This document shows, in pieces, positions 1-15,540 of a stretch of DNA of 64,000 bases (position 1 is its first letter; each line of letters begins with the position of its first letter). A program made the position numbers and the translations under genes. The stretch comes from a bacterium. Lineage in GTDB: Bacteria; Margulisbacteria; Marinamargulisbacteria; JABIPA01. The notes beneath the pieces were generated by a model that saw only the letters and a list, made by a program, of their open reading frames with translations, was not told where the DNA came from and did not search any database. The DNA is taken from NCBI GenBank assembly GCA_018698675.1, contig JABIPA010000019.1:17902-81901 (forward strand), given 5' to 3'.

Positions 1-2679
1 CTTAAAAAATCTAGTTTTCCTACCGAATATTCAAATAATATTGCTAAAGAAGAAGTTGAAAAATTTATTCAAAAACGGATTAAAGAGTTGGATGTTAAGA
101 TAATTAATTCTCAGTATAGCAATAAAATGTTAATAGATAATTTAGAGGATTATTGTACGAATTTGGAATCTGACGATTCATTGAAAGGTACACGAAATCC
201 TGTATTAGGGCCTTTAAAAGAGCTCCTTAAAAAAATTCAAACTACTCCTTTATACCTATTGTCCAATCATCTTACTGGAAAAATATTGGATAGTAATATT
301 GGTATTACAAATGAAAAATTTGAAGAACTCGTGTTAAAGACATTCATGATGTATGAAAAATTAAATGAGCCTAGTAATTTATTTAAGTTATTACCACCTT
401 TGTTATTAGACCAGGCGTCAGTAAATAAAATTCAAGAATTGCCGGAACGATATAACAAGACATTTAATTATTTGGGAGTATCGACTGTTTATAATGATGA
501 GATGATTAAGGCATACGAACTTAAAATAGGTAGTAAAAATCGATATTTTATTCCTGTTTTAGATACAACAACGGGTAGAGTTTTTAAGGTGACTGATATA
601 GAGCATGCTTTAGAGCTTCCGGATGACCATTCTTTATTATCTTATAAAAATCATGCAACTTTTTGGTTTAAATCAGACGGGTTTTTTGATAGTTGCACGG
701 ATGTTTCTCAAGATGATGTAAATCAGTCAAATACCTCTGTATCGATAGAAAATTTTATTATTCAGTTAGAAGACATATCTAAACTTATAGCTAATTTGAA
801 TCAACAGGATGAAGAATACTTTGATATTGAACTTGAAGCTCTTGAAAAAGGTATTGTTTCATCGGGTCAAGATGCAACACAATATAAACTTACATCGTTT
901 GAAGATCTTTGTAGAAAATTTAATAATGAATTTCTAAGTTCTTCTCCTAACTATAGTGATTTTAGTAAGTTTATTATGGAAAATATATTATTAAAGGGCG
1001 AAGAACTTGTTCTTCCTGAACAGTTTTCGGAAAACTTTTTGAGTACTATTTCTAATAAAAGATATAAAACTACGATTAATAAATTTTTGAAAAAATTTAA
1101 AGAACAGTTTACCACTTTTAAAGTGGATATTATGGAAGGAGATATTGTTGCTACAGTTCATCATCGTCTTACATATTTGAAGTCAATTTGTGACAAAATT
1201 GATGAACTTCGAGAAAATCACCAAGATGGATTGATTCCTTTTGTTTTGGATGACAATTTTGAAAAAAATGAACCTCTTATTGTCTCTCTATTAAGTTTAA
1301 AAGAAAGGCAAACGCTAATATCATTTACTCAAAAGGATGATGAAATTACGACATATAATCGAAAGTCCATTGAATCAAGCAAAGGTTTGAAATCAAGAAA
1401 AAATACTGTGGGTGTTTCAAATACACCTTCTATGTTGCCAAAAAATAAGGTTTCTAAAGATGTAGATCCTGGTTTGAAAATTGTTAAAAATAAGTTATTT
1501 GTAGCCGTAAAAACTTTTTTTGGACTGTTTTTTCTTCATTGGATATATAATATTGTAAATCAGAACTCAGTTCATTCTATATTTAAAAATTCGGAAAATG
1601 CTAGAGGTTTAAGTTTGTTAGAAGTAGATGCTCTTAAATCCGGAAGTGCGAGTGATCAACTGAAATGGTTGAGGCTAAGTCAAACGAATAAGATGACGAC
1701 AAATGACGTTCATTTCGATCGCAATAATTTAGATCTTTTTATTCACTTTTTAGGATCCGATAAGAATGATATTCGTCAAATGAGTAGTAATCTTTTAGTT
1801 TCTCACCTTGATTCATTGATAGATAGAAACGTTATAGAAAAAAATGGAAATTTGGTGCCCGTTTTAATACATAATTTGAAGAGTAACAAAGCCAGGAAAA
1901 TAGTTAATACGGTTGTATTGCTGGATGAATTCTCTAGGTATGATGGTTTATGTCTCATGTTAAAGTCTAAATTAGATGTTCTTGAATCAATCTTAGATAT
2001 TATAGTTAGAGACAGAGAAAAACCTCATTTCAATGATACTTTAAAAACATTTTTTAATATCGTACAACCAACTGGAAATAAATTATTAACTTATCCGATG
2101 GTTACTACAGATAATTTTCAATTTAATGAGAAAATGTCATATGCTACATTAGAATTTGCGAAAATGTTTAGGGCCCTTCGAAGTCGGGATGTATTTTTAG
2201 ATACTCAATCATTGTCATCAACTATTTGTCACTTATTGCAAAGTAAAAAGAGAGAATATAGACACGGTGGGTTTACGTTACTTCATCATATGGGAGACAA
2301 CCCTAGGTATAGGACTTTACTAAATGAAGAAAGCAAGATTCATTCAGAGGTAATAAAATTGGTCGAGTCGTTGTCTACAAATGTTCGAGAAGACGGAATT
2401 AGTCATTTAACAATGTTGTCTCGGATGGAGGCGTTTAATGGGCTTTATTTTAAGTCTCCGTTGTTGTTAGAAAAACTTATTTTAATTTTTACAGAGGAGT
2501 CTACATTCTCTCAACAAAATATTATAGAGACATTTGCTCATTTAAGTACGAAAAAAGAGGGTCGTCTATTTTTATCATCTAATCCTAGATTCATTGACAC
2601 TCTAAACAATATGAGAAGCCAATTTGAAGATGAGAGTGTTCTTATAAATATTGAAGTGATAAGACGGAGTACTTTGTAG
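1..2679 (+). CDS. Large hypothetical protein, 5'-partial. The reading frame is open from window position 1. The ORF track starts at TTG 88. No recognisable catalytic motif.
   Basis: Uninterrupted frame from nt 1 through 2679 (29 sense codons upstream of the TTG at 88, no stop). At least 863 aa. Convergent with the OMP gene ending at 2695. No TM segment or known motif seen. Confidence 0.45.
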   Translation, partial: LKKSSFPTEYSNNIAKEEVEKFIQKRIKELDVKIINSQYSNKMLIDNLEDYCTNLESDDSLKGTRNPVLGPLKELLKKIQTTPLYLLSNHLTGKILDSNIGITNEKFEELVLKTFMMYEKLNEPSNLFKLLPPLLLDQASVNKIQELPERYNKTFNYLGVSTVYNDEMIKAYELKIGSKNRYFIPVLDTTTGRVFKVTDIEHALELPDDHSLLSYKNHATFWFKSDGFFDSCTDVSQDDVNQSNTSVSIENFIIQLEDISKLIANLNQQDEEYFDIELEALEKGIVSSGQDATQYKLTSFEDLCRKFNNEFLSSSPNYSDFSKFIMENILLKGEELVLPEQFSENFLSTISNKRYKTTINKFLKKFKEQFTTFKVDIMEGDIVATVHHRLTYLKSICDKIDELRENHQDGLIPFVLDDNFEKNEPLIVSLLSLKERQTLISFTQKDDEITTYNRKSIESSKGLKSRKNTVGVSNTPSMLPKNKVSKDVDPGLKIVKNKLFVAVKTFFGLFFLHWIYNIVNQNSVHSIFKNSENARGLSLLEVDALKSGSASDQLKWLRLSQTNKMTTNDVHFDRNNLDLFIHFLGSDKNDIRQMSSNLLVSHLDSLIDRNVIEKNGNLVPVLIHNLKSNKARKIVNTVVLLDEFSRYDGLCLMLKSKLDVLESILDIIVRDREKPHFNDTLKTFFNIVQPTGNKLLTYPMVTTDNFQFNEKMSYATLEFAKMFRALRSRDVFLDTQSLSSTICHLLQSKKREYRHGGFTLLHHMGDNPRYRTLLNEESKIHSEVIKLVESLSTNVREDGISHLTMLSRMEAFNGLYFKSPLLLEKLILIFTEESTFSQQNIIETFAHLSTKKEGRLFLSSNPRFIDTLNNMRSQFEDESVLINIEVIRRSTL

Positions 2680-2694
2680 TTGTCTCGTTTCGAA

Positions 2695-3993
2695 TTAAAA
2701 CTTTAAACTAATTTGAGATCTTAAATCAATCGACTTTCCTGTACCTTTATATTCTGAATTTGAATCTCCGAAATAGAAAATTAATGAATTGTTAAATGTA
2801 AGTTCGTTAATTAACGTATACGTCCATCCCAAGTTCATTAACCCAGACCCGTCGTTAAAGTTTTGAAGAATATTCACGAATGTATTACTTGAGTGATAAG
2901 GAAATTCTGAAATTGTAATAAATGCGGAATGATAATGTTTAGATAATTGATTTGGGATATAGATATTCTCTTCAACTAAGCTATCTATAAGTGATGTATC
3001 AGTCCAGTTTAAAGTCTCAAATCCATTTGTTTGATAATAGTGTTCATAAGTTACCCGGACTCTATTAGGTCGTTCCCAATTGATTGATTTGGATAATTGA
3101 CCCATCCATTGATACTGTCTGGATTCTGATTTGTACTGAACGTCTGACCCATTCATAAAAGGTTCTTTGCCATTAAATATACTTAATTCGCTTAAAATAT
3201 CGAACCCAAAAAGATAGGTAGATGCTTCAAGACCGAAACGGCTACTTTGATTTCGTTTAATCAAAGTAGAAATGCCCAGCTCAATATTTTTTAGGGCTAT
3301 TTCATACTTTGAAACTAGACTTAAGTCACTTGGTTCGTCTGACTGTTGAGAATTTAAAAAGAAGTAAAGATTACTTCGTGTTCCATTTGGTATGTGAACT
3401 TTTAATCCATAAACACCTTCTAGCGCTTGATTTAGATTCAAAAAGTCTTTTTTGTCGACATTTACAAAATCAATTGGATTCCAAAAATGCCCTTGGCCCC
3501 ATTTTAGATATTGTTTTCCAACCCTAAAATAAGAGGTGTAGTCTAAATTGAAATCGACGAAGTATTCTTTAATGTTAATGATAAGGGATTGAGCTGAGGG
3601 GACATTCGGATCATTTATTTGACCTAAGTAGATGTCCATAAACCCCTTAACTCCTTTTTGAAATCGAAAATCCAAGAAGAAATCAGCGTCTGAATAAAAT
3701 TGTAGTCTGTTGTTTGATACGGTGCTTTCAAATAGATTTGAGTTTCTATTTACTTCGTAGAGCCCATACATATTAATTATTCCAGTAAAATTTACAGAAT
3801 TTCTTTTCTCTATTAATGACGTCGTAGAAGGTTGAATCGTTTCAATTGTCATATCGATAGTTTCATTTTCGAATAATGATCCTTTGAAATCAAAAAAGGG
3901 TTCGCTGATGATATCTTCCGATAATAATACAGAAGATAGGCTTAGGAATGTGATTAGAAAAGATAATATCAAAGACTTTTTTAATGATTGCAT
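2695..3993 (-). CDS. Putative outer-membrane β-barrel protein of the exporter cluster
   Basis: N-terminal signal peptide (MQSLKKSLILSFLITFLSLSSVLLS). Alternating amphipathic β-strand character. C-terminal ...SLKF with terminal Phe, typical of BAM-assembled OMPs. Same strand as, and directly downstream of, the LolA-like and ABC genes. Confidence 0.45.
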   Translation of the reverse strand: MQSLKKSLILSFLITFLSLSSVLLSEDIISEPFFDFKGSLFENETIDMTIETIQPSTTSLIEKRNSVNFTGIINMYGLYEVNRNSNLFESTVSNNRLQFYSDADFFLDFRFQKGVKGFMDIYLGQINDPNVPSAQSLIINIKEYFVDFNLDYTSYFRVGKQYLKWGQGHFWNPIDFVNVDKKDFLNLNQALEGVYGLKVHIPNGTRSNLYFFLNSQQSDEPSDLSLVSKYEIALKNIELGISTLIKRNQSSRFGLEASTYLFGFDILSELSIFNGKEPFMNGSDVQYKSESRQYQWMGQLSKSINWERPNRVRVTYEHYYQTNGFETLNWTDTSLIDSLVEENIYIPNQLSKHYHSAFITISEFPYHSSNTFVNILQNFNDGSGLMNLGWTYTLINELTFNNSLIFYFGDSNSEYKGTGKSIDLRSQISLKF

Positions 3994-4000
3994 CGTGTTA

Positions 4001-4816
4001 TTAATTAGATAAATTTTCTAAATACGCCTTTGTGAATATATGATTGTCGATAGGACTAAACGTTATATCTGTAATTTCCCAAACCGTTTTGTTTCCTTTT
4101 TCAAAATTATCAATAACCATTTGCTTAATAGCAATAAATTTATCGTTAATTTTTGAATATTTTAGAAAATATTGTGTTGAAATAAGGGAGTTTGAATAAG
4201 ACTTATTTTGAATTTTTAAAGGAAGTAGGTTGTCCTGTCTGACCCATATCGTCAAATTTGGATAAGCGACATTTGGGAGGTCGGAGGAAACGTCAATTTT
4301 GTAAGCTGGAATCTTTCCTAAATTTACCGTTTGAATAATATCTTCATTGTCAGAGTCTTTTTTTCCTTTATACTGCAATTCATATTTAGGTGTTTCGAAA
4401 TCGCTCGTGTTAGCATCTGACCCGGCTATGCTTTCATCTCTGCTTATGTGCTGAAATGTTCGAGTATTTCTTCGGTACATCCAAAAATGATCATCGGCTT
4501 TCAGATACCCATTTCCTTTTTCCGATTCTGGAGCAGTCATGACAATTAAAAATTGGTCCGTAGATCCTTTTGCAAAATAAATAGATTCCATTTGCTTGAT
4601 CCCTTGTTCAATATCTTGTTGAAGAATGGTTACTTTTGCCGTGACATCTTTTTCTATTGTTTGTTGTTTATCTATTTTTTTTAAAATTTTATTGATAGAT
4701 GGTTTTAGTTTAAGGGATGTTGCCGAAAGTGAGGATGCTATCAATATGGTCGTTAAAAAAATAGTTATTGTTAATGGTCTGTTGTTTGAAACTGGGTAGT
4801 TTGTTTTATCATTCAT
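4001..4816 (-). CDS. LolA-like / outer-membrane lipoprotein-sorting-like periplasmic protein
   Basis: N-terminal signal anchor (LTITIFLTTILIASSLSATS). About 270 aa, the size and position typical of LolA_like proteins that accompany FtsX-type ABC exporters. 7-bp gap to the OMP gene and 14-bp gap to the permease gene. Confidence 0.4.
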   Translation of the reverse strand: MNDKTNYPVSNNRPLTITIFLTTILIASSLSATSLKLKPSINKILKKIDKQQTIEKDVTAKVTILQQDIEQGIKQMESIYFAKGSTDQFLIVMTAPESEKGNGYLKADDHFWMYRRNTRTFQHISRDESIAGSDANTSDFETPKYELQYKGKKDSDNEDIIQTVNLGKIPAYKIDVSSDLPNVAYPNLTIWVRQDNLLPLKIQNKSYSNSLISTQYFLKYSKINDKFIAIKQMVIDNFEKGNKTVWEITDITFSPIDNHIFTKAYLENLSN

Positions 4817-4830
4817 TAAATAATCCTTTC

Positions 4831-6531
4831 TTAACGCCTTAGTGCTTCTGATGGACTTAATTTTGCAGCATTTCTACACGGGAAGTAAACTGTAATTAGA
4901 GTGAATCCTAGAACTAATAATAAATTTTTAATGATATGAGATAGAGTTGGTAAAAAATAAATGCCGTTATCTACAAGTATCATACTTAGTGCATTGTCTG
5001 TATTGAATTCGAATAGTGAGATACCTTTCATGATACCAAACGAAATTAATATGCCGATTACAGAACTAATAGAAACAAGGATTAACATCTCTAAAAGAAA
5101 TATCCATTGCAGTTGTGATTTTTTAAGACCTATTGCTCTTAACGTTCCAATTTCCCTATAACGTTCCTTTATTGTCATTCTTAAAGAATTTAGGACTCCA
5201 ATCATAATAATAAAGAAGAGAATAATTGAAACGGAAAGAACAACTAAATTAAACATTTGTTCGAACTGAATGACTTCCTTTGCGGTTTCATACATCGAAG
5301 ACACATCAATCGTTGGTTGTGCTTTTTTATTTTTCATTAACGTTTTTAATTTTTTATTGAATGAAATGGTATCCTTTGTTCTTTTTGTTAACGTCCATTC
5401 TGTATCTATGACGTCTAGTATGGAGATATCAAAATTATTTTCTGTAAAATATTTTTGTAGATTTATTTTTTTATTTGGATAGGTGGTTTGGAATAGTTTA
5501 AAGAATCTTTCGCTTGGTAAGAAAATGATATTTTTTGATGTTTTAGAATAGATTCCTTTAACGGAGTCTTTTATGGGTATCGTCCCATATTTATTTGGCT
5601 CTCTTTGTGAAAATGTTAATTTTGAATGGGATGCATCAAGAGTATTTGAAATTATAGGAACATTTAGTACCGTTGCACGTTTTTTAGTTGTAGTAACGTC
5701 ACTTAGTTTGATTCCTAAACGTGTTGAAATGTTGTTTTGGGATGGTATGGTCCCTATTGGGACTACGATGATAGTTTTATTTCCTAATTTTGCCTGAATA
5801 CCTATTTTTTGAGGTGATAAATGTTGATGAATAGAGTCGGCCGTTGTTTTTGCCGTTTTAGGGTTTTTTAGAAGCAGCTTGAATGAACCCGACTCTTGGA
5901 GTTTATAGCCTAATAACGTTTTTAATGTGGCTGTTTTTGAAAAAATGGCATAGTCCATAAACATGTTTTTATTTTTCGTTATTATGGAAAGAATAAACGT
6001 ACCAGTGTTTGTTTGTCCGTTTACATTTGTTGCACGGATATTAACGGAATCTCCGATAGAAATGTTTAAATTTTTGGCCTTTTGTTCGGAAAGTATGATG
6101 GGATTATCTATAGATTCGAAAAGCTCATAACTACCTTCTAGTGGTTTATAGAGCTGCTTAAAATCCTCATCTAAATTTGTGTTGCTTACCCATGCATAAT
6201 CTCCTTTTCCATTCCCGACAACTCTTACTAGGCTTCCTATATCTTCATAAATGGTTTGAATATTTGGGTCACTTTTAAGGATGAGTGATTTTATTTTTTC
6301 TTTGTCTCTAAAAATAGGAGAAATGATTCGGCCGTTTTCAATTCCTTGAACTTTTACGTGTCCAGTCATGTATATAACCATTTTATTTAAAATATTGTCA
6401 GAAATACCGTTTGAAAATGCATTTGCTAACATCATGATCATGATGCCAAAACTTATAGATGCACCAATCATAAGGTTCCTTCGTTTTTGTCTTAAAAAAT
6501 TTCTAAAACTAATTTTCCAAATAGTAAACAT
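4831..6531 (-). CDS. ABC transporter permease, FtsX/MacB/LolCE family (permease 2)
   Basis: N-terminal TM (MIGASISFGIMIMMLANAF), a large periplasmic domain, and a C-terminal FtsX domain with the family motif RMTIKERYREIGTLRAIGLKKSQL plus three more TM helices. Confidence 0.8.
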   Translation of the reverse strand: MFTIWKISFRNFLRQKRRNLMIGASISFGIMIMMLANAFSNGISDNILNKMVIYMTGHVKVQGIENGRIISPIFRDKEKIKSLILKSDPNIQTIYEDIGSLVRVVGNGKGDYAWVSNTNLDEDFKQLYKPLEGSYELFESIDNPIILSEQKAKNLNISIGDSVNIRATNVNGQTNTGTFILSIITKNKNMFMDYAIFSKTATLKTLLGYKLQESGSFKLLLKNPKTAKTTADSIHQHLSPQKIGIQAKLGNKTIIVVPIGTIPSQNNISTRLGIKLSDVTTTKKRATVLNVPIISNTLDASHSKLTFSQREPNKYGTIPIKDSVKGIYSKTSKNIIFLPSERFFKLFQTTYPNKKINLQKYFTENNFDISILDVIDTEWTLTKRTKDTISFNKKLKTLMKNKKAQPTIDVSSMYETAKEVIQFEQMFNLVVLSVSIILFFIIMIGVLNSLRMTIKERYREIGTLRAIGLKKSQLQWIFLLEMLILVSISSVIGILISFGIMKGISLFEFNTDNALSMILVDNGIYFLPTLSHIIKNLLLVLGFTLITVYFPCRNAAKLSPSEALRR

Positions 6532-6532
6532 A

Positions 6533-8053
6533 TTAGTTCCTTAGTACTGAATCGAGGGGCGTTATTTTTCTAGCTAAATAGATAGGATAAATTGATGAGA
6601 GGCAAACGATTAGGCTGAGTTGAAGAACACAGAGCCCCACACTTATAAAATCAAGAGTAGGGGAGAATGTATCTCCACCATATAAAATTTGCAACATTTC
6701 ATGGCTTGTTGATAACTTTAAAAGTTTGAATCCAATAATTGTGATTGAGCCTAATATGATTCCAGCCCCGCCAAATACAAATGACAGTAGACTCGTTTCT
6801 GCCAAAAACATTGTTTGAATGAATCTTTTCTTTGTTCCAATTGCCCTCATCATGCCAATTTCAGGAATACGCTCCATAGTTGCCATGCTTAAGGTGTTCA
6901 TAATTATGATTATAGCGACGATGAAAATGAAAAGAACAAATAAGAAGAGAGATCCCTTCATGAGCATCGCAATTTGTCCGAACATTCCAATAGCGTCATT
7001 CCATGATATGGCTTGCAATGGAATGTTTTTCTCCTTAAGTAAATTGTTTATTTGAGTGATCGTTTTATTTAAGTTTACGTCTTTTTTTAATTTTACAAAG
7101 ATAATGTTATAGGTTCCCAATTTTTTATCTAGTTGGGATGTTTTGATGTGCTTTATGTCTGATAGGTCATTTTTTATTTTTGTCGTTGATTCATTTACTG
7201 TATCAAAGGAATCGTTAAATAAAGTGTCAATGGAATCTAAGCTTGAAGTCATTAAATTTTGATTTTTTGTGCTCAAATGAACGGCTTCGTCTGAAGATTC
7301 AAAGTATCCCATACATTCTCTAAATGAACTCATATCAACAATGCAGTAAAACCCTAGGATACTATTTAATTCTTTAAATTTTACGATACCTATAACATCA
7401 GTCAAAATATCTAAACTCGCATTTTTACTACTTAGTCCCATATATACAATTGATTTTTTTGTTTGTAGGGAGGAGCCATTCTTTTTTACTTTTTCAGGGG
7501 CTTTTTCTTGGTCAAATGAAGTATTTATCGGTACTGTCCATGAATCTGTAAAATCAAAATACCAGTCTCTCATTCGGGTTGATACAAGAACTCCCCTTTG
7601 GTTTTTTTTGAGAAGTGAGCCTTTTTCAACGATTAAATTATTATTAAAAAATTCTAAATATGATTCAATGTCGACGCCTAATAAATATTGGTCCAACGGA
7701 TTTCCATTTTCGTTGAGAACCCAAACATAGCCAGCTCCTGCGGGAAGAATTTTATCTATTGATGGGATATTTAATATTTGAGGCTTTAACTCAGTGAAGT
7801 TAGTAATAGGTTTTAAGGTATGACCTGTCATACTTGCGAGAACAGTTTTTTCGATTTGTTTATCTGAAACTAGAACCAGGTCCCCTGAAAAGTTGTTAAC
7901 AATATTTTTTTGAAGGCCTGTATCTAATCCGTTTATAACTCCATTTCCAATTGTCATAATGAAGGAACCTAGGCATAAGATAAGTCCTATAACGAAAGAC
8001 TTTCCTTTATGTCTATAGAGATTTCGCCATGCAATTTTTAGTTCAATTGGCAT
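6533..8053 (-). CDS. ABC transporter permease, FtsX/MacB/LolCE family (permease 1)
   Basis: Same architecture as the adjacent permease. FtsX motif ERIPEIGMMRAIGTKKRFI. Overlaps the ATPase gene by 11 nt. Confidence 0.8.
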   Translation of the reverse strand: MPIELKIAWRNLYRHKGKSFVIGLILCLGSFIMTIGNGVINGLDTGLQKNIVNNFSGDLVLVSDKQIEKTVLASMTGHTLKPITNFTELKPQILNIPSIDKILPAGAGYVWVLNENGNPLDQYLLGVDIESYLEFFNNNLIVEKGSLLKKNQRGVLVSTRMRDWYFDFTDSWTVPINTSFDQEKAPEKVKKNGSSLQTKKSIVYMGLSSKNASLDILTDVIGIVKFKELNSILGFYCIVDMSSFRECMGYFESSDEAVHLSTKNQNLMTSSLDSIDTLFNDSFDTVNESTTKIKNDLSDIKHIKTSQLDKKLGTYNIIFVKLKKDVNLNKTITQINNLLKEKNIPLQAISWNDAIGMFGQIAMLMKGSLFLFVLFIFIVAIIIIMNTLSMATMERIPEIGMMRAIGTKKRFIQTMFLAETSLLSFVFGGAGIILGSITIIGFKLLKLSTSHEMLQILYGGDTFSPTLDFISVGLCVLQLSLIVCLSSIYPIYLARKITPLDSVLRN

Positions 8054-8720
8054 TTATTTGGCCGTCGCGTATCGTGATTGATGAATCGGCGTATTTGAGT
8101 ATTTCTGGGTCGTGAGTAGAGAATAAAAACGTTGTTTTTCTAGTTTTATTTAAATCCTTCATTAGTTTTAGAATGATGGCTCCCGTTTCGGAGTCTAAAT
8201 TTGCGGTCGGTTCGTCAGCGAGCACGATTTCTGGGTCAGTCACCAAGGCTCGGGCAATTGCGACTCGTTGACGCTGGCCCCCCGAGAGTTCTGATGGACG
8301 GTGATCTTTTTGGTCCATTATATGAACGGATTTCATCATATCTAAGGCTTTTTGCCTGATTTCTTGTTTAGAGTATTTATTCATTAATAGAAGAGGGAAT
8401 TCTATGTTTTCTAATACATTTAAAACGGGAATTAAGTGGAAGGATTGAAATATAAATCCAATGTTGAAAAGACGAAGTTCTGTTAGCTGGTTATCTGTTA
8501 ATGAATCTATTTGATTTCCGTGAATTTGAACAGATCCTGAACTTGATTTGTCTATACATCCGATAACGTTAAGTAGTGTGGTTTTCCCACTTCCAGAAGG
8601 ACCAACTATCGCTGAAAAGGATCCTTTTTCTATCTTTAAATTAATGTTTTTCAGAGCATGGACAACTGTTTTACCTAAATAATAGTCTTTGTTTATATTT
8701 TTAAGCTCTACAATTGCCAT
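8043..8720 (-). CDS. ABC transporter ATP-binding protein, LolD/MacB type
   Basis: Walker A GPSGSGKTTLLN, Q-loop, ABC signature LSGGQRQRVAIARAL, Walker B LADEPT, H-loop STHD. GGGAG RBS 7 nt upstream of the ATG. Confidence 0.9.
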   Translation of the reverse strand: MAIVELKNINKDYYLGKTVVHALKNINLKIEKGSFSAIVGPSGSGKTTLLNVIGCIDKSSSGSVQIHGNQIDSLTDNQLTELRLFNIGFIFQSFHLIPVLNVLENIEFPLLLMNKYSKQEIRQKALDMMKSVHIMDQKDHRPSELSGGQRQRVAIARALVTDPEIVLADEPTANLDSETGAIILKLMKDLNKTRKTTFLFSTHDPEILKYADSSITIRDGQINAN

Positions 8721-8756
8721 ATTAGATCTCCCAAATTTATTTTTTTTAAGCGTATT

Positions 8757-8782
8757 AAAGTAACTATTTTATAGTTACTTTA
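8757..8782. promoter_or_regulatory. Perfect 11-bp inverted repeat (aaagtaactat-ttt-atagttacttt) in the 152-bp gap between the nitroreductase operon and the ABC exporter genes
   Basis: Read directly from the sequence. AT-rich palindrome with a 3-nt spacer, so either a weak stem-loop or a dimeric regulator operator. No T-run follows on the coding (minus) strand. Confidence 0.3.
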
Positions 8783-8872
8783 ATTAATATTAAAGCTCGA
8801 GAGTTTGATAAAAGCAAAACTTTTATTATTTCGTTCTGAAGATTCTAGAGTAAAAATAGAGTGGTAGGTAGT

Positions 8873-9901
8873 TTATGCTATTGTTTCATTTTTGGTTAAG
8901 TGAGTTTCTTTTGTTTTTTCTATTGAAAGATAAGGAATTATTTTATTTTGAATACTTTCCCTCTCTATTTGTTCAATTGACGTTGATTTCTTTCGTATAC
9001 CGTATGTAAAAAGTATTTGAGGAGTATGTTTTAGGGAAAACGTTTTTTGTATTTCATCCGACGAGTCTTTTTCAAGAAAAGGAGCGCCATAAAGACATGT
9101 CGATAAGTTTTGTTGCGACAAATGAAGAAGAATACTTTGCAGATCCTGTCCCGTTTGAATTAGGGTTTTCATGTCTGATTTCGAGGATAGTATGATGATT
9201 CCGTCAGCCGTTAAAATATCTGGATATTTTGTTTTAGCGATTGTTTTTCCTATTGATTGATTGGAAGAAATGATAGGCATTATATTTGACGCGAATGTCG
9301 GAATATTTAATGCAGAGAGTGGAATACCTATTTTTGAAGATGAAAGAATAGATGGAAACATTTTATTTAGGGTGTTTTTGAATTTTTTATCAGTAGAATT
9401 TAGGTCAATTCCTTTTTTTGCGTATTTTTCAATTAATTTAAATGATGATTTTTCCTTTAAAATTTTAATTTCCGAATTAATTTCTCTTCTAAAAAATGTT
9501 TTTTCAGTGTTTAAAATGGGTTTGTCGACAACTTGAGGTAAATATTTGTCTCTATAGTTTTGTCTTTTTTTAATGAGTTGAATAAGTTTGTTATAGCTAT
9601 GTTCGTTTGTTATTTGTTTTGAGTCCATGTTTACGACTATTTTAGCGATGTTTGGATACTGTGTTTGATACTCAATATTTACAAACCGTTTACAACTTTT
9701 TAGTAGGAGTATCACATTTTGAACAAAACATCCGATGCTTATTAGTTGAAAAGACTTGCTTGGATCAAGTTTATTTAAATCTAAATTGGCGTCTGCGCTT
9801 ATTAATATCGTGTTATCGTGAAAGGCAATTTTCCATGGTTGAGTATTGTAATAAGATGGCGCTAAATTGGCGTGTTCAAGAAGCTGAAGTAAATTAAACA
9901 T
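8873..9901 (-). CDS. Nitroreductase-superfamily protein (SagB/McbC-type dehydrogenase-like), 342 aa
   Basis: N-terminal nitroreductase hallmark ...YYNTQPWKIAF... (N-x-QPW FMN-binding motif). Longer than classical NfsB-type enzymes, consistent with the two-lobed SagB-type. GGAG RBS 7 nt upstream. Confidence 0.55.
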   Translation of the reverse strand: MFNLLQLLEHANLAPSYYNTQPWKIAFHDNTILISADANLDLNKLDPSKSFQLISIGCFVQNVILLLKSCKRFVNIEYQTQYPNIAKIVVNMDSKQITNEHSYNKLIQLIKKRQNYRDKYLPQVVDKPILNTEKTFFRREINSEIKILKEKSSFKLIEKYAKKGIDLNSTDKKFKNTLNKMFPSILSSSKIGIPLSALNIPTFASNIMPIISSNQSIGKTIAKTKYPDILTADGIIILSSKSDMKTLIQTGQDLQSILLHLSQQNLSTCLYGAPFLEKDSSDEIQKTFSLKHTPQILFTYGIRKKSTSIEQIERESIQNKIIPYLSIEKTKETHLTKNETIA

Positions 9902-9925
9902 TGATACTCCTTTTATTTGATTTCT

Positions 9926-10600
9926 TTAAATTATAATGCATGGCAAATTAATATTTTTAATTTCATCTGGGATATCTTTATCATAGTCAAAGTAGTGTAT
10001 TTCCATTGGAAATTTTTTGGATACGTATTTGTTGTGACAAAAGTAGTGAGGGAAGTTTTTTAAAAAATGTGTTTTTATCCCTGATGCATGGAAAAAAGCT
10101 TTTAATACAGATCTTTTACTGCAAATTAACACAATTTTTTTTGAATCAGTTTTTTTAAATTTTAGAAATTGACTATTTAATGTTGATTTAACTAAATTAA
10201 TTCCAATTTGTCTGGAATTTATATACGTTTCTTTTACAACAAGTTTAGTTAATTCTCGGATTTCAAAATTAGAGGTAAGATCGATCTTTTGATTAATTTC
10301 GTCAAAACTCACGTTACCGTATTCTAAGGCGTAGCTGTTTTCTAAATAGGCACCAATCGACCCAATAACTTTTCCATTGGATTTTGCCATTAAAAGTTGG
10401 TCGGGGAAACGTTCGATAGGTTCATTTGAAACAGGTTGTTGGTTTATTAAGGTAACACCATATTTTTTAAAATAAATAGAGGCCATTAACTCTTGGCATT
10501 CTTTTTTTTCGGTTTCATGTTTAACAATTTCTAATGTATGGCTGGACGCGAATTTCGTATTCGTATCATTTAGTTGTTTGATTAATGTTTTGCTAATCAT
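9926..10600 (-). CDS. Hypothetical protein; possibly a GNAT-fold N-acyltransferase / N-acyl-amino-acid-synthase-like protein
   Basis: 224 aa, no TM. Segment NFEIRELTKLVVKETYINSRQIGINLV resembles the E-x-R...V / Q-x-x-G-x-G core of the GNAT/LuxI/NAS fold. Start overlaps the upstream gene's stop (ATGA), indicating translational coupling. Confidence 0.3.
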   Translation of the reverse strand: MISKTLIKQLNDTNTKFASSHTLEIVKHETEKKECQELMASIYFKKYGVTLINQQPVSNEPIERFPDQLLMAKSNGKVIGSIGAYLENSYALEYGNVSFDEINQKIDLTSNFEIRELTKLVVKETYINSRQIGINLVKSTLNSQFLKFKKTDSKKIVLICSKRSVLKAFFHASGIKTHFLKNFPHYFCHNKYVSKKFPMEIHYFDYDKDIPDEIKNINLPCIII

Positions 10601-12885
10601 AGAAATTGGGATACCTTTTCAACGGGTCTTTTTAAGGATGCTATTGGCTCTTGATCCGAATAAAATAATCGAAACAGAAGGACGAGCCCGTTGTCTGACG
10701 AATGTGGAATAATTGGGGTAAATTTATTTTTTAATGAAAGTAGATCTTTTTTAAGCCAAGCTGGAAGAGTTTCTGGCTTTAAATAAAGACGAGTCAGTAA
10801 ATAACAGATGCTCGTCATTGGTTGTAAGCTAAGACCTTCTTTACTTGCTGTTAACCATAATTTTTCAAGTGCCTGTCCTCCATGAAAAAAGCTTAAGGGA
10901 TCATTCTTATCAGTTATAATACATCCAATAGCAGGGCTTTTTTCTATTTGTTTTAAGGAGAAGCTTTCTATCCCTTTTCCTCCCTTAACTTTTTTAAGAA
11001 GTTCAACAACTGACCAGCTTTTTGATAATTTTAATCCAGCGAGATCCAAATTTGATAGATAAAGAGTATCGATATCGATACCATCTCTAGAATCATCAAC
11101 TTCTTTTTTATTCCATCGGATTTCGTTATACATTTCTTCGTGGCATTGTTTGTGAAAGAATCGACATTTTTCTGATTCGGCGAAAATATCCGAAAGTTCT
11201 GCAATGTCTGAAGGGTCTGTTTTAAAAATTACTTTTGTACCTTCAATGCTTTCGCAGGCAGTTGTTAGTTTTGAAAATGTTGACGTTTTAATTTCCTGTT
11301 TTGATGCTTTTTTACGGTTCGTTTTTCGTTTGAATATTTCATTGAATAAATCTGGCATTGTAGTTGTTAGTTCTAATTTTTTAGTTTGTTTAAAAATAGC
11401 AACACATGGAAACGAATCTGGATAAATTGTTTCAAAGGTCATTCCATTTTTTTCGGCGGCTATTTTAAAATTTTCAGCGGCAGCTCCAAGGGCTAAATGA
11501 GAGGCTAGGTAATTTATATCTAAAAATATACCTGCTCTAGATTTGTCTATAAAAAGAAAAACGAGATCGTTGTGGATAATCCACTTCCATGGCTGGATAT
11601 TTCCACCTGAAGGGGCTTGGTTTGCACAATCAATGCATTCGGATATTTTTGATTTTATAATTGGGACTGTAGCTGATAGGTTTTTATCGATTATTATTTT
11701 TTTTGCACAGCTGAATTCATATTCATTAGCGGATATGTCTTTAACTAGCTCCTTATTAGTAGTAATAGATTCCTGAGATTTATTTAAATTATTAGATTCT
11801 GTTTTAGTCGAAGTGGGTTGGTTTTTATCTAGTTCTTCGTCTAAATCGAAATAATAACGCCCCGATTGAGTGTGAGTAGATAACAGAATTCTTCTTGCTA
11901 CGTGAGTTGCAATTCCTGCTCCATTAGAAACTGACGAAGCAAGTTGGGGCCAAGAATTTATGCTTTGTTCAATTTCTAACATACTTGATTTTAATCTATC
12001 GGAAGCATCATTTATTCCAAGAATATCTAAAACTAATGGTATTTTTTCTTCATTTGTAAGATTTTTTAAGTTGGTTTTATTTTCTAAATTAGTAAGTCCA
12101 TGAAATAAAGGTCTGTCAGGCTCTAAATCGAATCGTTCAATATCTAAAAGTTCTCTGTCAGTTGTATGCATGATTACAGGAATGTTTAAGTTTTTACATT
12201 TTTTTCTTATTTCAATTTTTGTTTCAAAGCAGTCACATTCTTCAATAACGAGGTCAAGTTGAGCTGTTTCTGTAAGAAATTCAGAATAATTTTGGGTGTT
12301 TAAACCTTTGTCGAATATTGTTAATTTTAAAAATGGGTCAATTTCAAGTATTTCACGTGCTGTTAAAATTGCTTTGTTCATACCGATGTTTTTTACATTT
12401 GTTCTAATTCTATTTAGATTTGAAAGTTCAATTGAATCGAAATCAGCAAGTCTAATTTCACCGCATATTCTTTCTTGTGCAATAGTTAGCGCTATTGCGT
12501 GACCTACGGATAGCCCGACGACGCCTATTTTTTTTGCTTTTAATTCGATTTGTTCTTCTTCTGAAATTTTGTACATGTTTCTTGCTGTTCTTAATTTAAT
12601 GAATTTATTTTCATCAAGAAGATGCACGAGGTGATTATTCCACGGGTAATATACCCAAACCCCAATGTTATTTTTATTACCTGTGTCAAAATACTGTTTT
12701 TTAGCATTTTCTATGACTTTGTCTGATTTTTCGTTAGGAATAAAGAGTTTTGTATATTCTAATAGTTGACTTTCGATTTCATCAAAAATTTGGATATTGG
12801 AATTGTTTTTTAAATGCACAAGTTTATCAGCGTCGATTGGATTATTAGGATCTAGTATATCTACTTGAAATTTATATTTTTCCAT
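10597..12885 (-). CDS. ThiF/MoeB/E1-like adenylyltransferase domain fused to tandem nitroreductase-like domains (MoeY/Rv1355c-like architecture)
   Basis: E1 Rossmann motif IGVVGLSVGHAIALTIAQERICGEIRLADFDSIELSNLNRI (G-x-x-G-x-x-x-G ... D-x-D ... SNLNR, as in ThiF/MoeB/MccB). C-terminal half carries the nitroreductase hallmark APSGGNIQPWKW. 762 aa. Confidence 0.7.
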   Translation of the reverse strand: MEKYKFQVDILDPNNPIDADKLVHLKNNSNIQIFDEIESQLLEYTKLFIPNEKSDKVIENAKKQYFDTGNKNNIGVWVYYPWNNHLVHLLDENKFIKLRTARNMYKISEEEQIELKAKKIGVVGLSVGHAIALTIAQERICGEIRLADFDSIELSNLNRIRTNVKNIGMNKAILTAREILEIDPFLKLTIFDKGLNTQNYSEFLTETAQLDLVIEECDCFETKIEIRKKCKNLNIPVIMHTTDRELLDIERFDLEPDRPLFHGLTNLENKTNLKNLTNEEKIPLVLDILGINDASDRLKSSMLEIEQSINSWPQLASSVSNGAGIATHVARRILLSTHTQSGRYYFDLDEELDKNQPTSTKTESNNLNKSQESITTNKELVKDISANEYEFSCAKKIIIDKNLSATVPIIKSKISECIDCANQAPSGGNIQPWKWIIHNDLVFLFIDKSRAGIFLDINYLASHLALGAAAENFKIAAEKNGMTFETIYPDSFPCVAIFKQTKKLELTTTMPDLFNEIFKRKTNRKKASKQEIKTSTFSKLTTACESIEGTKVIFKTDPSDIAELSDIFAESEKCRFFHKQCHEEMYNEIRWNKKEVDDSRDGIDIDTLYLSNLDLAGLKLSKSWSVVELLKKVKGGKGIESFSLKQIEKSPAIGCIITDKNDPLSFFHGGQALEKLWLTASKEGLSLQPMTSICYLLTRLYLKPETLPAWLKKDLLSLKNKFTPIIPHSSDNGLVLLFRLFYSDQEPIASLKRPVEKVSQFL

Positions 12886-13113
12886 ATGGTTGTTTGCCTT
12901 ATTTTTTATTTAAAATAGTTTCAAATATTAATTTACATAGTAACTAGATTAGTAGTTGAATATGTGAAATTTTAACCTAATAAAACTTTTTATTTTTTAA
13001 TATTAAGGGAACGCCTTACTAAGAAGTATAAACTTTTTTTTGATTAAAGCAAATGTTTTTCAATTGCGTTTATTTAAGTATAAGTTTTAATGGTTTATGA
13101 CATTGTAATGCAG

Positions 13114-13119
13114 TATAAT
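13114..13119 (+). promoter_or_regulatory. Candidate sigma-70 -10 hexamer (TATAAT) about 45 nt upstream of the PP2C gene start
   Basis: Exact TATAAT at 13114-13119, with TTATGA 13 nt upstream as a weak -35. The divergent 278-bp intergenic region probably serves both flanking operons. Confidence 0.25.
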
Positions 13120-13163
13120 TAATTCTGTTACCAAGTTTATCTTTTACGCTATAAATATAATAT

Positions 13164-14561
13164 ATGAACACAATTACAAACCTTTTGATGCTGTATGGTG
13201 GTATTTTATTAATAAATACTATTATTTCAATTTTTCTTTGGATAAATGATAAATCTAAAACTAGTTTCTATAAAATTATGTTTTATATTTGGTTTTCGAG
13301 TGTTGTTGCTTTTGTTTTTCAAGGAATATTGCAGCAAAATGACTTAGCTATTGTATCTGGTTTTGCTTTTACATTGTTTACTGTTTTTTCTTTAGTTTTC
13401 CTATTTAAAGATATTTATTCTTTTCGGGTACCTATTAAACGATTAGTCGGGTTTTTCGTCGTTTCTTATGGAACAACTATTTTACTTTTAATTAATGGTA
13501 TTGAATTTGTTTATGCTGTTTTGCCTTTGTCCTTTAGTGTTGCATTACCCTTACTTGTTACGGCATATCATGGTTTTTTTAAACGATGGAACGAGCTTAC
13601 CTTTCCCGGGAAAGGATATATTTGGGTAGCTGTAATGTTTTCTATCCATATTTTAGATTTTCCATTTTTGAGAAAGGTTGATTCCGCAGCGACTCTTGGT
13701 TTTTTAATTGCTATTCTCATCGTTTTTGGATTTTCTATTTTCGCGCCTGCCATGGTTATAGAAATTCTTGCAAAAAGGCAAACTCGGATTGTTGCTGAAA
13801 TTGATGTTGCTAAGAAGATTCAAACTGAAATTTTACCTAAAGACCCTCATGTTCCTGGGATGGATCTTACATGTTTTATGAGGCCTGCAGATGAGGTTGG
13901 GGGCGATTATTATGATATTTACTCTGTTGGAGACAAGACATGGTTGTTTCTTGGAGATGTGACTGGACATGGTCTCGGATCCGGCCTCGTGATGTTTATG
14001 GCTCAAAGTATTATTACTTCTATATTAGAGACAAACCAGTCGATTACTCCTATGGGTTTAAATCTGTTGTTTAACCAAATATTATTTAACAATTTGGAAC
14101 GATTGAATGAAAAGCGTCCGATGGCTCTAATTTCTTTATGTTTTGGAAAAAATAATTCGGTTGCTCTTAGTGGTAATCACGATCTTATTTTTGTGTACCG
14201 ATATAAAACTAAATTGATTGAAAAATTGGAACTTTATCAATTTCCTATGGGACTAGGGTTTACCGATAATTTTGATGAGTCTGCGGTAAAAGATGAATCA
14301 TTGGTTTTAGAAGACGGAGATATTTTATTCTTGGGAACAGACGGAATTACTGAAGCGGCGAGACATGGGGACGTTAATTTAGGCATGTTTGGTGAAGAAC
14401 TTTTGGAAAAATGGTTGGAAGAGAATTGTGAAAACACCGTTGATGAAATGAAGAAGTCATTGCTTGAAAAATTGGACAATTATACCAATGGAAATTACTT
14501 TGATGACATTACTTTTGTAATTGCACGTTTAGATTCTCAAAAACTGGGTAAAATTATTTAA
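13164..14561 (+). CDS. Membrane-anchored PP2C-family (SpoIIE/RsbU/SiaA-like) Ser/Thr phosphatase with an N-terminal 6-7-TM sensor domain
   Basis: About 200 aa of successive hydrophobic helices, then a PPM domain with motifs DEVGGDYYD, GDVTGHGLGSGLVM, GTDGITEA and DDITFV (metal-binding Asp residues). Confidence 0.8.
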   Translation: MNTITNLLMLYGGILLINTIISIFLWINDKSKTSFYKIMFYIWFSSVVAFVFQGILQQNDLAIVSGFAFTLFTVFSLVFLFKDIYSFRVPIKRLVGFFVVSYGTTILLLINGIEFVYAVLPLSFSVALPLLVTAYHGFFKRWNELTFPGKGYIWVAVMFSIHILDFPFLRKVDSAATLGFLIAILIVFGFSIFAPAMVIEILAKRQTRIVAEIDVAKKIQTEILPKDPHVPGMDLTCFMRPADEVGGDYYDIYSVGDKTWLFLGDVTGHGLGSGLVMFMAQSIITSILETNQSITPMGLNLLFNQILFNNLERLNEKRPMALISLCFGKNNSVALSGNHDLIFVYRYKTKLIEKLELYQFPMGLGFTDNFDESAVKDESLVLEDGDILFLGTDGITEAARHGDVNLGMFGEELLEKWLEENCENTVDEMKKSLLEKLDNYTNGNYFDDITFVIARLDSQKLGKII

Positions 14562-14563
14562 GT

Positions 14564-15172
14564 ATGGATACAAGTATATTTAAAATTAATAAATTAAGCC
14601 CCAAGAGTTTGTTTTCGGATTCAAAACAATCTTGGTTCTTTGGTGACTACATAACATTAGAAGAAGACGAAATGATTTTTTCGGAATGTCATCTAAAATT
14701 TTTGCCACTCCATTTAATTTCTAAATGGTCTAGATGTGGATTAACAGCCGAATATTTATCAAAGTACATTGCCTTGAATTCAGAGAAGATTATTGAAGTC
14801 GAAAATTTTGCGTCGACTGTGATTAATGAATTGATTGAAAACGCAGTTAAGTTTTCGTTTGATAAGTCAGAATCAATATTGGTATCTATGCACCAAACTG
14901 AAAAAGCAGTGTTGGTTAGGATAGAAAATGTTGCCGATTACGATTCGGTAAAAAAATTCGTGGATTTTTTAGAAGAAATCGACTTAACGGATATAGAAGA
15001 AACGATGATTAAACGAATAGAAAAGAGTGCAACGTCAGATGGAGATGTGTCTGGTTTGGGGATTTTATCTATCATCAATGATAGTGATGTTACCTTTGGT
15101 ATGAAAATTTGTTCAGAATCGGCAGAAGACGAGACGTTTTCAGTAGATATAAAAATATTATTTAAAATTTAG
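14564..15172 (+). CDS. SiaB/RsbW-like anti-sigma-factor-type Ser/Thr kinase (GHKL ATPase-like), paralog 1
   Basis: N-box-like INELIENAVKFS and glycine-rich GDVSGLGILSI. Paralogous to the 15541..16107 product (shared ...SKWSRCGLTAEYLSKY... / ...SEWERCGLISDYLARY...). 2-nt gap after the phosphatase gene. Confidence 0.55.
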   Translation: MDTSIFKINKLSPKSLFSDSKQSWFFGDYITLEEDEMIFSECHLKFLPLHLISKWSRCGLTAEYLSKYIALNSEKIIEVENFASTVINELIENAVKFSFDKSESILVSMHQTEKAVLVRIENVADYDSVKKFVDFLEEIDLTDIEETMIKRIEKSATSDGDVSGLGILSIINDSDVTFGMKICSESAEDETFSVDIKILFKI

Positions 15173-15189
15173 GGAAAAGGGGAGATTTA

Positions 15190-15528
15190 ATGTTTAATAA
15201 AGATTATCAGATAATAGAAGCAAGCGTTGGAGTAATTGGTTTAACAGGAGTTTTAAGATTACCGTCACCAGGTGCTTATGATGCCCCTTTTGCACCTATA
15301 TACGAAAAAATGCAAAATGAAGAATTTCCTACGTTTGTTTTAGATGTAACGGAGCTCGTTTTTTTAAATAGTGCGGGACTAACGGCTTTGGCTCAATTAA
15401 TTATTTATTGTCGGGAACATAATATTCCATTGACGTTAAAGGGAAAGAAAGGTGTTCCTTGGCATGAGAAAAGTATTTCAAGGTCTCTTGCCCGTTTATG
15501 GAAAGAAATGATAGTGGAGCTTGTTTAA
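15190..15528 (+). CDS. Partner-switching target protein, DUF1987 (SiaC-like) / STAS-like
   Basis: 112 aa. ...LRLPSPGAYDAPF... and FVLDVTELVFLNSAGLTALAQLI resemble the SiaC/DUF1987 signature (GDSYPENS ... LYLNTSS) more than canonical RsbV/SpoIIAA. Confidence 0.5.
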   Translation: MFNKDYQIIEASVGVIGLTGVLRLPSPGAYDAPFAPIYEKMQNEEFPTFVLDVTELVFLNSAGLTALAQLIIYCREHNIPLTLKGKKGVPWHEKSISRSLARLWKEMIVELV

Positions 15529-15540
15529 TAGATATTTTAA

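Follow-up and report, generated by a model that had tools for sequence, protein, structure and literature searches.

A predicted N-acyl amino acid oxazolone operon divergent to a partner-switching module in an uncultured marine Margulisbacterium

What is made by a bacterial operon in which an E1-like adenylating domain is fused to a nitroreductase-type domain, and what controls it? The question is raised by positions 2695-12885 of a 64,000-nt stretch of contig JABIPA010000019.1 (assembly GCA_018698675.1), called the window here, in whose numbering all coordinates are given. An earlier reading, made from the letters of the DNA and without database searches (the sequence-only reading), described eight consecutive minus-strand genes in this interval, split by a 152-bp gap, and took them for an uncharacterised modification cassette with a dedicated exporter. 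All eight genes are present as described; the observation is largely correct, and its interpretation partly supported. The reading favored here, at a probability of about 0.7, is that the three genes at 8873-12885 form an operon for an oxazolone derived from an N-acyl amino acid, or for its hydrolysis product, and that this operon is coupled to a partner-switching module encoded divergently from it.

The first gene (10597-12885, minus strand) encodes a 762-aa protein that matches the NF005901 “Rv1355c family” equivalog model over residues 3-760 of 762, with 719.2 bits against a cutoff of 476. The fusion seen from the sequence is borne out: the ThiF model PF00899 scores 72.8 bits and the Acg-family model NF047509 scores 131.7 bits on residues 417-694, with a ThiF-like cyclase domain at about 100-350 and an Acg-type flavin-dependent oxidase (FDO) domain at about 417-760. 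In alignments of 16 and 5 sequences, G121/G124/G128, D148/D150, R159, K171, and D218 are invariant among homologues, and R575 and Q688 are conserved in the protein and its homologues. D218, R575, and Q688 align by spacing with the published D217, R540, and Q651 of TrzS_Msmeg (PMC12856293); R and Q lie 111 positions apart in the mycobacterial homologues, in agreement with the publication, and 113 apart in the window protein. Because the match is full-length and above a curated cutoff, and the ATP-binding and catalytic residues are invariant, the first gene is taken to encode a TrzS/OxzB-type oxazolone synthetase; to judge by its sequence, the protein is a full-length member of the Rv1355c family, to which TrzS belongs. 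More than 4,500 homologues were found, mostly in Sphingobacteriaceae and other Bacteroidota.

The biochemistry of this family is recent. Rv1355c, in older annotation “MoeY,” received its new assignment, TrzS, late in 2025 (Kleetz et al., JBC 2025, PMC12856293): N-acyl tryptophan made by TrzA (Rv1356c) is converted to N-acyl tryptazolones by an ATP-dependent cyclisation followed by an O2-dependent desaturation (PMC12856293). In the window operon, the N-acyl amino acid synthase is predicted to be the product of the second gene (9926-10600, minus strand, 224 aa). The stop codon of trzS and the start of this gene overlap by 4 nt, and the third gene follows 24 nt further downstream.

The 224-aa protein itself has no Pfam match, and does not qualify by sequence as a member of PF21926 (FeeM) or PF13444. 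A word-indexed search with it returned only itself and its orthologue; an exhaustive HMMER search over 1.84 billion proteins brought up 35 representatives, which marks the family as rare. GNAT models are weakly matched by 15 of 31 family members, and FeeM/Acetyltransf_5 models, also weakly, by two of the 31. An AlphaFold (AF2) model of the protein has a pLDDT of 87.9, and its best Foldseek match in the PDB is FeeM (2G0B; E 1.7e-6, TM 0.56/0.67), followed by LasI, EsaI, and BjaI. FeeM and BjaI are also the closest structures reported for TyzA of Mycobacterium tuberculosis (PMC10404671). The description “GNAT-like” in the sequence-only reading thus holds for the family and for the modeled fold, and fails for Pfam matches of the window protein. 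From this FeeM/acyl-homoserine lactone (AHL)-synthase fold and from its context, the protein is predicted to be an N-acyl amino acid synthase feeding TrzS.

The third gene (8873-9901, minus strand) encodes a stand-alone protein of 342 aa. It had been called a SagB-like nitroreductase; it is a relative of Acg-type flavin mononucleotide (FMN) oxidoreductases, but not a SagB, neither nitroreductase-type sequence of the operon matching TIGR03605 (SagB) at E <= 0.01. The Acg-family model NF047509 matches residues 7-305 with 126.2 bits, below its cutoff of 199; there is a match to the MsAcg structure 2YMV (E 1.4e-3); and the protein retains the APSxxNTQPW motif. With the FDO domain of the 762-aa protein it shares 24% identity. 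By these matches it is a second oxidase of Acg type, resembling TyzC in size.

The proposed pathway would begin with the 224-aa acyltransferase, which on the evidence of its fold and context would N-acylate an amino acid, probably an aromatic one, with acyl-CoA or acyl-ACP. The ThiF-like domain of the 762-aa protein would then adenylate the carboxylate and close the oxazolone ring, and its Acg-type FMN domain would desaturate the C-alpha/C-beta bond with O2. For the window protein, these two steps are drawn from family membership and conserved residues; they have been shown for Mycobacterium and Pseudoalteromonas homologues. The 342-aa oxidase might, more tentatively, carry out a second or alternative desaturation. 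The oxazolone could hydrolyse to an N-acyl-2,3-dehydro amino acid.

By comparison with described systems, the chemistry and the gene pair are already known; the locus departs from them in the separate family of its acyltransferase, in its second FDO, and in being systematically linked to signaling genes. The discovery of oxazolone synthetases dates from 2021. The same logic is found in OxzAB of Pseudoalteromonas rubra and other Proteobacteria (de Rond et al., bioRxiv 10.1101/2020.06.11.147165); it has been shown for TyzACB (Rv2336-2338c) of M. tuberculosis (PMC10404671); and it has been proposed for the stieleriacines, thalassotalic acids, and kyonggic acids (PMC12479983). TrzAS (Rv1356c/Rv1355c; Mycobacterium, Rhodococcus) shares with the window the ThiF-FDO fusion, the Asp and Arg/Gln positions, and an adjacent acyltransferase in the operon. 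The window fusion is however only about 31-33% identical to its mycobacterial homologues; its acyltransferase gene follows the synthetase gene instead of preceding it, and represents a rare family of its own; there is an extra stand-alone FDO; the neighbors are partner-switching rather than cyclic di-GMP genes; and the host is an uncultured, low-GC (~31%) marine bacterium. Beside the plasmid-borne mycobacterial Rv1355c homologues, the downstream “hypothetical protein” is unrelated to the acyltransferase.

OxzAB likewise consists of an N-acyltransferase and a ThiF-nitroreductase didomain enzyme, producing tyrazolones and phenazolones from acyl-CoA and aromatic amino acids; a signaling or stress role is suspected for these products (bioRxiv 10.1101/2020.06.11.147165). 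The window protein falls far below the cutoffs of other ThiF-nitroreductase models (PRK14851, 243 vs. 1170 bits), and sits in the Rv1355c branch. TyzACB and the NasY/ThiF/nitroreductase clusters, whose products can be secreted N-acyl dehydro amino acids (PMC10404671, PMC12479983), include a separate FDO of ~340 aa (TyzC) that resembles the 342-aa protein, and TyzA has the structural neighbors noted above; there, however, ThiF and FDO are separate, whereas the window has one FDO within the fusion and another encoded by its own gene.

If this is the pathway, what is it connected to? Its conserved partner, to judge from gene neighborhoods, is a divergent partner-switching operon at 13164-16107, beyond the interval that the sequence-only reading covered. 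The first of its four plus-strand genes (13164-14561) encodes a membrane-bound PP2C phosphatase of the SpoIIE/RsbU/SiaA type, with a PF07228 match of 89.9 bits on residues 257-456, a weak SiaA match, and conserved PP2C motifs GGDYYD, DVTGHG, TDG, and DD. Its N-terminal ~200 aa (window 13164-13800) are predicted to form about six transmembrane (TM) helices, with hydrophobic segments at 7-25, 38-56, 63-81, 95-124, and 181-199. Among homologues, including those of loci L083-L119, W43, Q53, H162, and D165 are invariant in this membrane domain and R170 nearly so, and the motif H-N-L-D-F-x-F-L-R is kept; in 10 members the N-terminal domain has no Pfam match. It is a candidate new sensor module.

The next three genes encode two GHKL (anti-sigma-kinase-like) proteins of the slr1658 superfamily, 34% identical to each other, and between them an slr1659-like, anti-sigma-antagonist-like STAS-domain protein. 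Paralogue 1 (14564-15172, 202 aa) scores 119.6 bits with NF047703 (cutoff 100), with weak HATPase_c_5 and DUF6272 matches, and paralogue 2 (15541-16107, 188 aa) scores 136.9 bits. In both, the N box and the GxGL (G2) box are conserved, and a DxGxG G1 box is not evident. The STAS protein (15190-15528) is matched below cutoff by PF01740 (21.9 vs. 22.6 bits) and NF047705 (64.2 vs. 100 bits), and a serine at the position equivalent to SpoIIAA Ser58 is kept across 18 homologues (F-L-N-S-A-G; family consensus N-S-S-G). The operon contains no sigma factor gene. Most related operons have a single GHKL gene; one other locus, L117, has the same duplication.

The 278-bp region between the two operons (12886-13163) holds no credible small open reading frame (ORF), and is probably a common control region for trzS and the SpoIIE operon. 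It is 87% identical to its counterpart in L001, a locus of a related metagenome-assembled genome (MAG), vs. 80.5% over the whole collinear block and about 80% for the flanking genes. Its invariant runs include CTTAGTAAGGCGTTCCCTTAA and AATTATACTGCATT, and these blocks may be binding sites for a regulator.

The linkage is not peculiar to this contig. Searching through the acyltransferase gave 33 loci in all, 26 of them from a metagenome scan with a narrow alignment, and partners could be counted over 29. A SpoIIE gene is upstream of the acyltransferase in 22 of these and a GHKL gene downstream in 22, with a STAS gene present in 17. For the downstream gene, in 22 loci, the best match is window GHKL paralogue 2 (E 1e-19 to 1e-42). 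ThiF and/or FDO genes, fused or split, are found in 13 of the 29, amounting to nearly all contigs with enough flanking sequence; a separate copy of the 342-aa oxidase was not detected in any of the loci. In Anaeromyxobacter and other Myxococcota the order is SpoIIE, acyltransferase, GHKL-like, and STAS, with overlapping stops and starts, and the ThiF-FDO gene about 2 kb away; in the window, the same four signaling genes stand divergent to trzS. Two natural acyltransferase-GHKL fusions, P0140 and P0144, each stand precisely where other operons have two separate genes between SpoIIE and STAS; one of them has a TrzS-type gene nearby. Their C-terminal halves share W-x-R-C-x-L-T-A-E-Y/F-L and EL-x-ENA-x-KF with GHKL paralogue 1. 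From this conserved operon structure and these gene fusions, the acyltransferase pathway appears to be coupled to the partner switch.

How might such coupling work? From its context, and by analogy with the control of SiaD by SiaABC, the likeliest mechanism is one in which the GHKL protein would bind the acyltransferase and restrain it, the membrane phosphatase would dephosphorylate the STAS protein, and the dephosphorylated STAS protein would compete for the GHKL protein and release the enzyme. Alternatively or in addition, the lipid itself could be the ligand of the membrane sensor. Partner switches that act on an enzyme instead of a sigma factor are known, SiaABCD (Pseudomonas aeruginosa) being an example, and the slr1658/slr1659 regulators (Synechocystis) are also comparable. 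What the window module shares with them is its set of parts, namely a membrane-bound PP2C phosphatase, a kinase-like GHKL protein, and a partner of STAS type; among NCBIfam models, those of SiaA and SiaB are weakly matched, and the GHKL proteins fall in the slr1658 superfamily. The window system differs in its proposed target, an N-acyl synthase rather than a diguanylate cyclase, in its undescribed sensor of about six TM helices, and in having no clear G1 box.

Full-text literature searches for oxazolones together with partner switching, and for DUF6272, gave no report of such a linkage, though there may be reports outside the literature searched; the oxazolone papers cited here mention no linkage to a kinase or phosphatase. 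Only cyclic di-GMP genes have been noted near trzAS, whose physiological role was called “a major unresolved question” (PMC12856293). If the link is real, oxazolone production would be under post-translational signal control, or oxazolones would themselves be signals. The window locus and its relatives offer a concrete handle on what these compounds do, and the linkage of synthase and signaling genes occurs in culturable carriers (Pedobacter, Mucilaginibacter, Anaeromyxobacter).

A parallel arrangement is found in Bacteroidota. Eighty genome loci were fetched around TrzS homologues and searched with all window proteins. Of 79 other loci, 68 have next to TrzS, on the same strand, a gene for a 238-269-aa protein with weak GNAT/FeeM hints. 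Every one of the 68 also has, downstream on that strand and at a median distance of 824 bp, a gene for a 7TMR-DISM sensor histidine kinase. Hybrid response regulator-kinase and response-regulator genes come after the kinase (L004-L082; for example L002, 9128-16631). The same 11 of the 79 loci are without both the 238-269-aa protein and the kinase; among these, L076 has a FeeM-family gene (PF21926), L015 a GNAT gene, and L055 a HisKA_7TM kinase. The recurrence of TrzS loci with an adjacent acyltransferase, whether of the 238-269-aa, FeeM, or GNAT kind, supports the pathway reading. Profile comparison did not support homology between the SpoIIE membrane domain and the 7TM region of 7TMR-DISM (hhalign probability 1.7%); the parallel is therefore one of architecture, not of descent.

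These arrangements invite a larger and rather doubtful extension, in which oxazolones, their acyl-amino-acid precursors, or their hydrolysis products would be signals with dedicated membrane receptors: the SpoIIE domain of about six TM helices in this bacterium and Myxococcota, 7TMR-DISM in Bacteroidota, and HisKA_7TM in another lineage. The circuits would make up a widespread family of paired synthases and receptors resembling LuxI/LuxR or LuxM/LuxN, and in the partner-switching cases the GHKL protein would gate the synthase directly.

Several observations weigh against an oxazolone operon under partner-switch control. The residue correspondences with TrzS_Msmeg depend on spacing, for which two mycobacterial plasmid homologues served as rulers. 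With no clear G1 box, kinase activity of the GHKL proteins is uncertain. By profile comparison, the acyltransferase family resembles neither the FeeM-type gene of L076 (hhalign probability 2%) nor the Bacteroidota 238-269-aa family (1.5%). With sequence similarity lacking on both sides, the acyltransferase role of the 224-aa protein depends on fold and context, and as homology is not detectable among the window, Bacteroidota, and FeeM types, these three families can be called only analogous GNAT-fold enzymes. One 13.7-kb contig (L085) has the signaling operon without any TrzS. Two further loci, home to the closest non-orthologous relatives of the acyltransferase, have SpoIIE genes and no ThiF or FDO, the acyltransferase being paired in each with an FAD_binding_4 oxidase, the two oxidases 40% identical: L119 (27-4911) has this oxidase and a full signaling operon, and in L118 (1545-10281) the acyltransferase is joined by the oxidase, a nonribosomal peptide synthetase (NRPS) C-A-T-TE module, and a longer SpoIIE protein. 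(An FAD_binding_4 gene near the TrzS of L084 was also considered; it is unrelated to the L118/L119 gene, and its position was hence deemed coincidental.) Finally, in L087 (9-4245) and L090 (4206-13428) relatives of the acyltransferase sit in aryl-CoA-type clusters, with genes for an aromatic amino acid lyase, an AMP-dependent CoA ligase, a haem-oxygenase-like enzyme, an AurF-like N-oxygenase, a DAHP synthase, or a halogenase, which suggest aryl-acyl products. The L118/L119 and L087/L090 contexts indicate that oxazolones are not the only compounds with which this family is associated. Since the tailoring enzymes vary, the steadiest pairing is that of the acyltransferase with the SpoIIE module.

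Does the transporter on the other side of the 152-bp gap belong to the pathway? Its five minus-strand genes are tightly packed, with overlaps or gaps of no more than 14 nt, and most of their identities proposed from the sequence were confirmed. The ATP-binding cassette (ABC) ATPase of LolD/MacB/DevA type (8043-8720, 225 aa) matches PF00005 with 119.7 bits, and the LolD model TIGR02211 with 250.8 bits, below its cutoff of 307.75. Two paralogous FtsX-type permeases follow, permease 1 with MacB/LolC topology (6533-8053, 506 aa) and permease 2 (4831-6531, 566 aa), with PF02687 scores of 59.2 and 66.1 bits; the lolCE model TIGR02212, whose cutoff is 362 bits, gives them 58.8 and 66.9. In each, a first TM helix is followed by a periplasmic domain of ~320-390 aa and then by three TM helices, which is the MacB-type topology; in the C-terminal TM region they are 34% identical. 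The LolA-like (PF17131/TP_0789-like) periplasmic protein (4001-4816, 271 aa; PF17131, 113.9 bits, cutoff 30) has a single hydrophobic segment, at 15-33, as N-terminal signal or anchor, and no lipobox Cys. The last gene (2695-3993, 432 aa) encodes a secreted protein of no known family, without Pfam, NCBIfam, or PDB matches. It has a signal peptide, no Cys, a C-terminal ...SLKF, and 71 amphipathic-beta windows vs. 47+-12 in shuffles, and is possibly an outer-membrane beta-barrel.

The operon resembles MacB/LolCDE-type (type VII) ABC systems in its separate LolD-like ATPase, its FtsX permeases with large periplasmic domains, and its PF17131 protein, but differs in that no MacA-type adaptor or TolC-family protein is matched and the last gene is of no known family. 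No HlyD/membrane-fusion protein (MFP) adaptor or TolC-family/outer-membrane efflux protein (OEP) match was found among the eight proteins, and by curated cutoffs only the LolA_like domain passes. Neither “Lol” nor “tripartite,” as the exporter had been called, therefore holds as a statement of membership; for a tripartite system, the gene for a periplasmic adaptor is missing.

The gap (8721-8872) does contain the palindrome that had been described, a perfect 14-nt inverted repeat with arms at 8754-8767 and 8771-8784 and a 3-nt spacer. L001 shares a conserved block that includes the left arm and the loop, but it has lost the right arm. It was rejected as a terminator or conserved hairpin, given the loss of the right arm in the relative and the lack of a T-run on either strand. 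A weak promoter-like match on the minus strand (8793-8766) overlaps it; such matches are no commoner than in shuffles, and neither promoter nor terminator scans showed enrichment over shuffled sequence. Rfam and tRNA scans of the window were empty.

The sequence-only reading itself allowed that the cassette idea would fail if the fusion and the ABC system proved unlinked in related genomes. Unlinked is how they appear: FtsX, LolA-like, and 432-aa homologues were found beside TrzS only in L001/L003, which are the same contig of an 82%-identical MAG; neither the 79 other loci of TrzS nor the 33 retrieved with the acyltransferase have them. The operon is best described, from this distribution, as a lineage-specific neighbor that may or may not move the lipid outward. 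In this lineage it could still belong to the cassette as a Lol-like conveyor from the inner membrane to the outer membrane or medium, which would add to the oxazolone reading rather than replace it; this is possible, with the balance of evidence against it. The two operons are on the same strand, 152 bp apart, and the block is intact in the 82%-identical relative: L001 and the window keep the same gene order from window position 2694 to beyond 16299, and collinearity ends exactly at the stop of the 432-aa putative outer-membrane protein gene. MacB-type pumps export lipids and lipopeptides. Culture supernatants are known to accumulate N-acyl tryptophans (PMC12856293), and stieleriacines too are secreted (PMC12479983), which keeps a lineage-specific link in play, and the tyz cluster adjoins mmpL9 (PMC10404671). 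Against this, the association is confined to one lineage, more than 110 other loci having no such set in the vicinity of TrzS or the acyltransferase; collinearity between the two relatives extends over the whole region, so that their synteny is uninformative; and the conserved block in the gap, with its promoter-like match, suggests separate transcription. Just beyond the 432-aa gene, a large plus-strand protein with eukaryote-like ARM/HEAT repeats is encoded at 88-2679 (1025 aa in a longer JGI gene call), with a weak match to a plant U-box ARM protein (32.7 bits); at this position the 82%-identical relative has a TonB_C gene, and synteny thus breaks there.

Might the 224-aa protein instead be part of the signaling module, acylating the STAS or GHKL protein or making some other signal, with the TrzS substrate coming from elsewhere? 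Outside this lineage its gene does sit inside the SpoIIE-GHKL-STAS operon rather than beside trzS, P0140 and P0144 combine it with the GHKL protein in one chain, and L085 and L119 carry the operon without ThiF or FDO. Its best fold matches are, however, small-molecule N-acyl synthases (FeeM and the LuxI type), not protein acetyltransferases; in the window it is translationally coupled to trzS; no other acyltransferase candidate is near TrzS in the loci found through it; and members of its family are also found in clusters with CoA ligases and NRPS genes. This arrangement is improbable on balance, and a synthase feeding TrzS is preferred.

The cassette had also been compared with peptide-modifying systems, on the grounds that E1-like ATP-dependent activation, FMN-dependent dehydrogenation of nitroreductase type, and a GNAT-type acyltransferase occur together. 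That enzymatic logic is upheld, as is the judgement that this is neither a thiazole/oxazole-modified microcin (TOMM) nor a microcin C system: there is no YcaO, no match to a SagB-type model, and no precursor ORF. The claim that it matches no described class is not, the core being that of a described non-ribosomal pathway to oxazolones and N-acyl-dehydro amino acids, with small molecules as substrates. It is highly improbable that the genes are a new system for ribosomally synthesised and post-translationally modified peptides (RiPPs), or for peptide-nucleotides, with an E1-like enzyme and a nitroreductase acting on a ribosomal peptide exported by a dedicated tripartite system. In TOMM and microcin systems such enzymes do have peptide substrates, the weak PDB matches include MccB and PaaA, which align to the ThiF core (E ~1e-3), and the genes are co-oriented, in operons 152 bp apart. 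But no Cys/Ser/Thr-rich ORF of 20-60 aa was found in 2600-13200, and the ORFs in the gaps are implausible; PF02624 (YcaO) is matched by none of the eight proteins, and for the genes called over the surrounding ~20 kb no match to YcaO or a SagB model is recorded; MccB matches the Rossmann core only (E 1.3e-3), and the microcin C precursor, a heptapeptide ending in Asn, has no ORF here. The fusion, moreover, is a full-length member of a family acting on N-acyl amino acids (PMC12856293), and the exporter genes have no membrane-fusion protein among them and are absent from all other related loci. The tempting annotation of a new RiPP class with its own exporter is corrected by this result.

The chance that the ThiF domain is a sulfur-carrier activator of MoeB/MoeZ/ThiF type beside a ThiS/MoaD gene, which the sequence-only reading had named as its own refutation, is practically negligible: MoeB and ThiF models do match the Rossmann core weakly (50-62 bits; 35-62 bits for MoeB, ThiF, and TcdA models on the 762-aa protein), but far below cutoffs of 152-650 bits (at best 61.5 vs. 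266), no ORF in 1-20 kb ends in the Gly-Gly of a carrier, there is no rhodanese domain, and Rv1355c itself has been reassigned as TrzS (PMC12856293).

Elsewhere in the window, the minus-strand Mfd ORF (23287-25389) is only 700 aa long and matches its model from position 305 onward. A 310-aa ORF just upstream on the same strand (25522-26454) might encode the N-terminal portion that it lacks, in which case mfd would be split or frameshifted.

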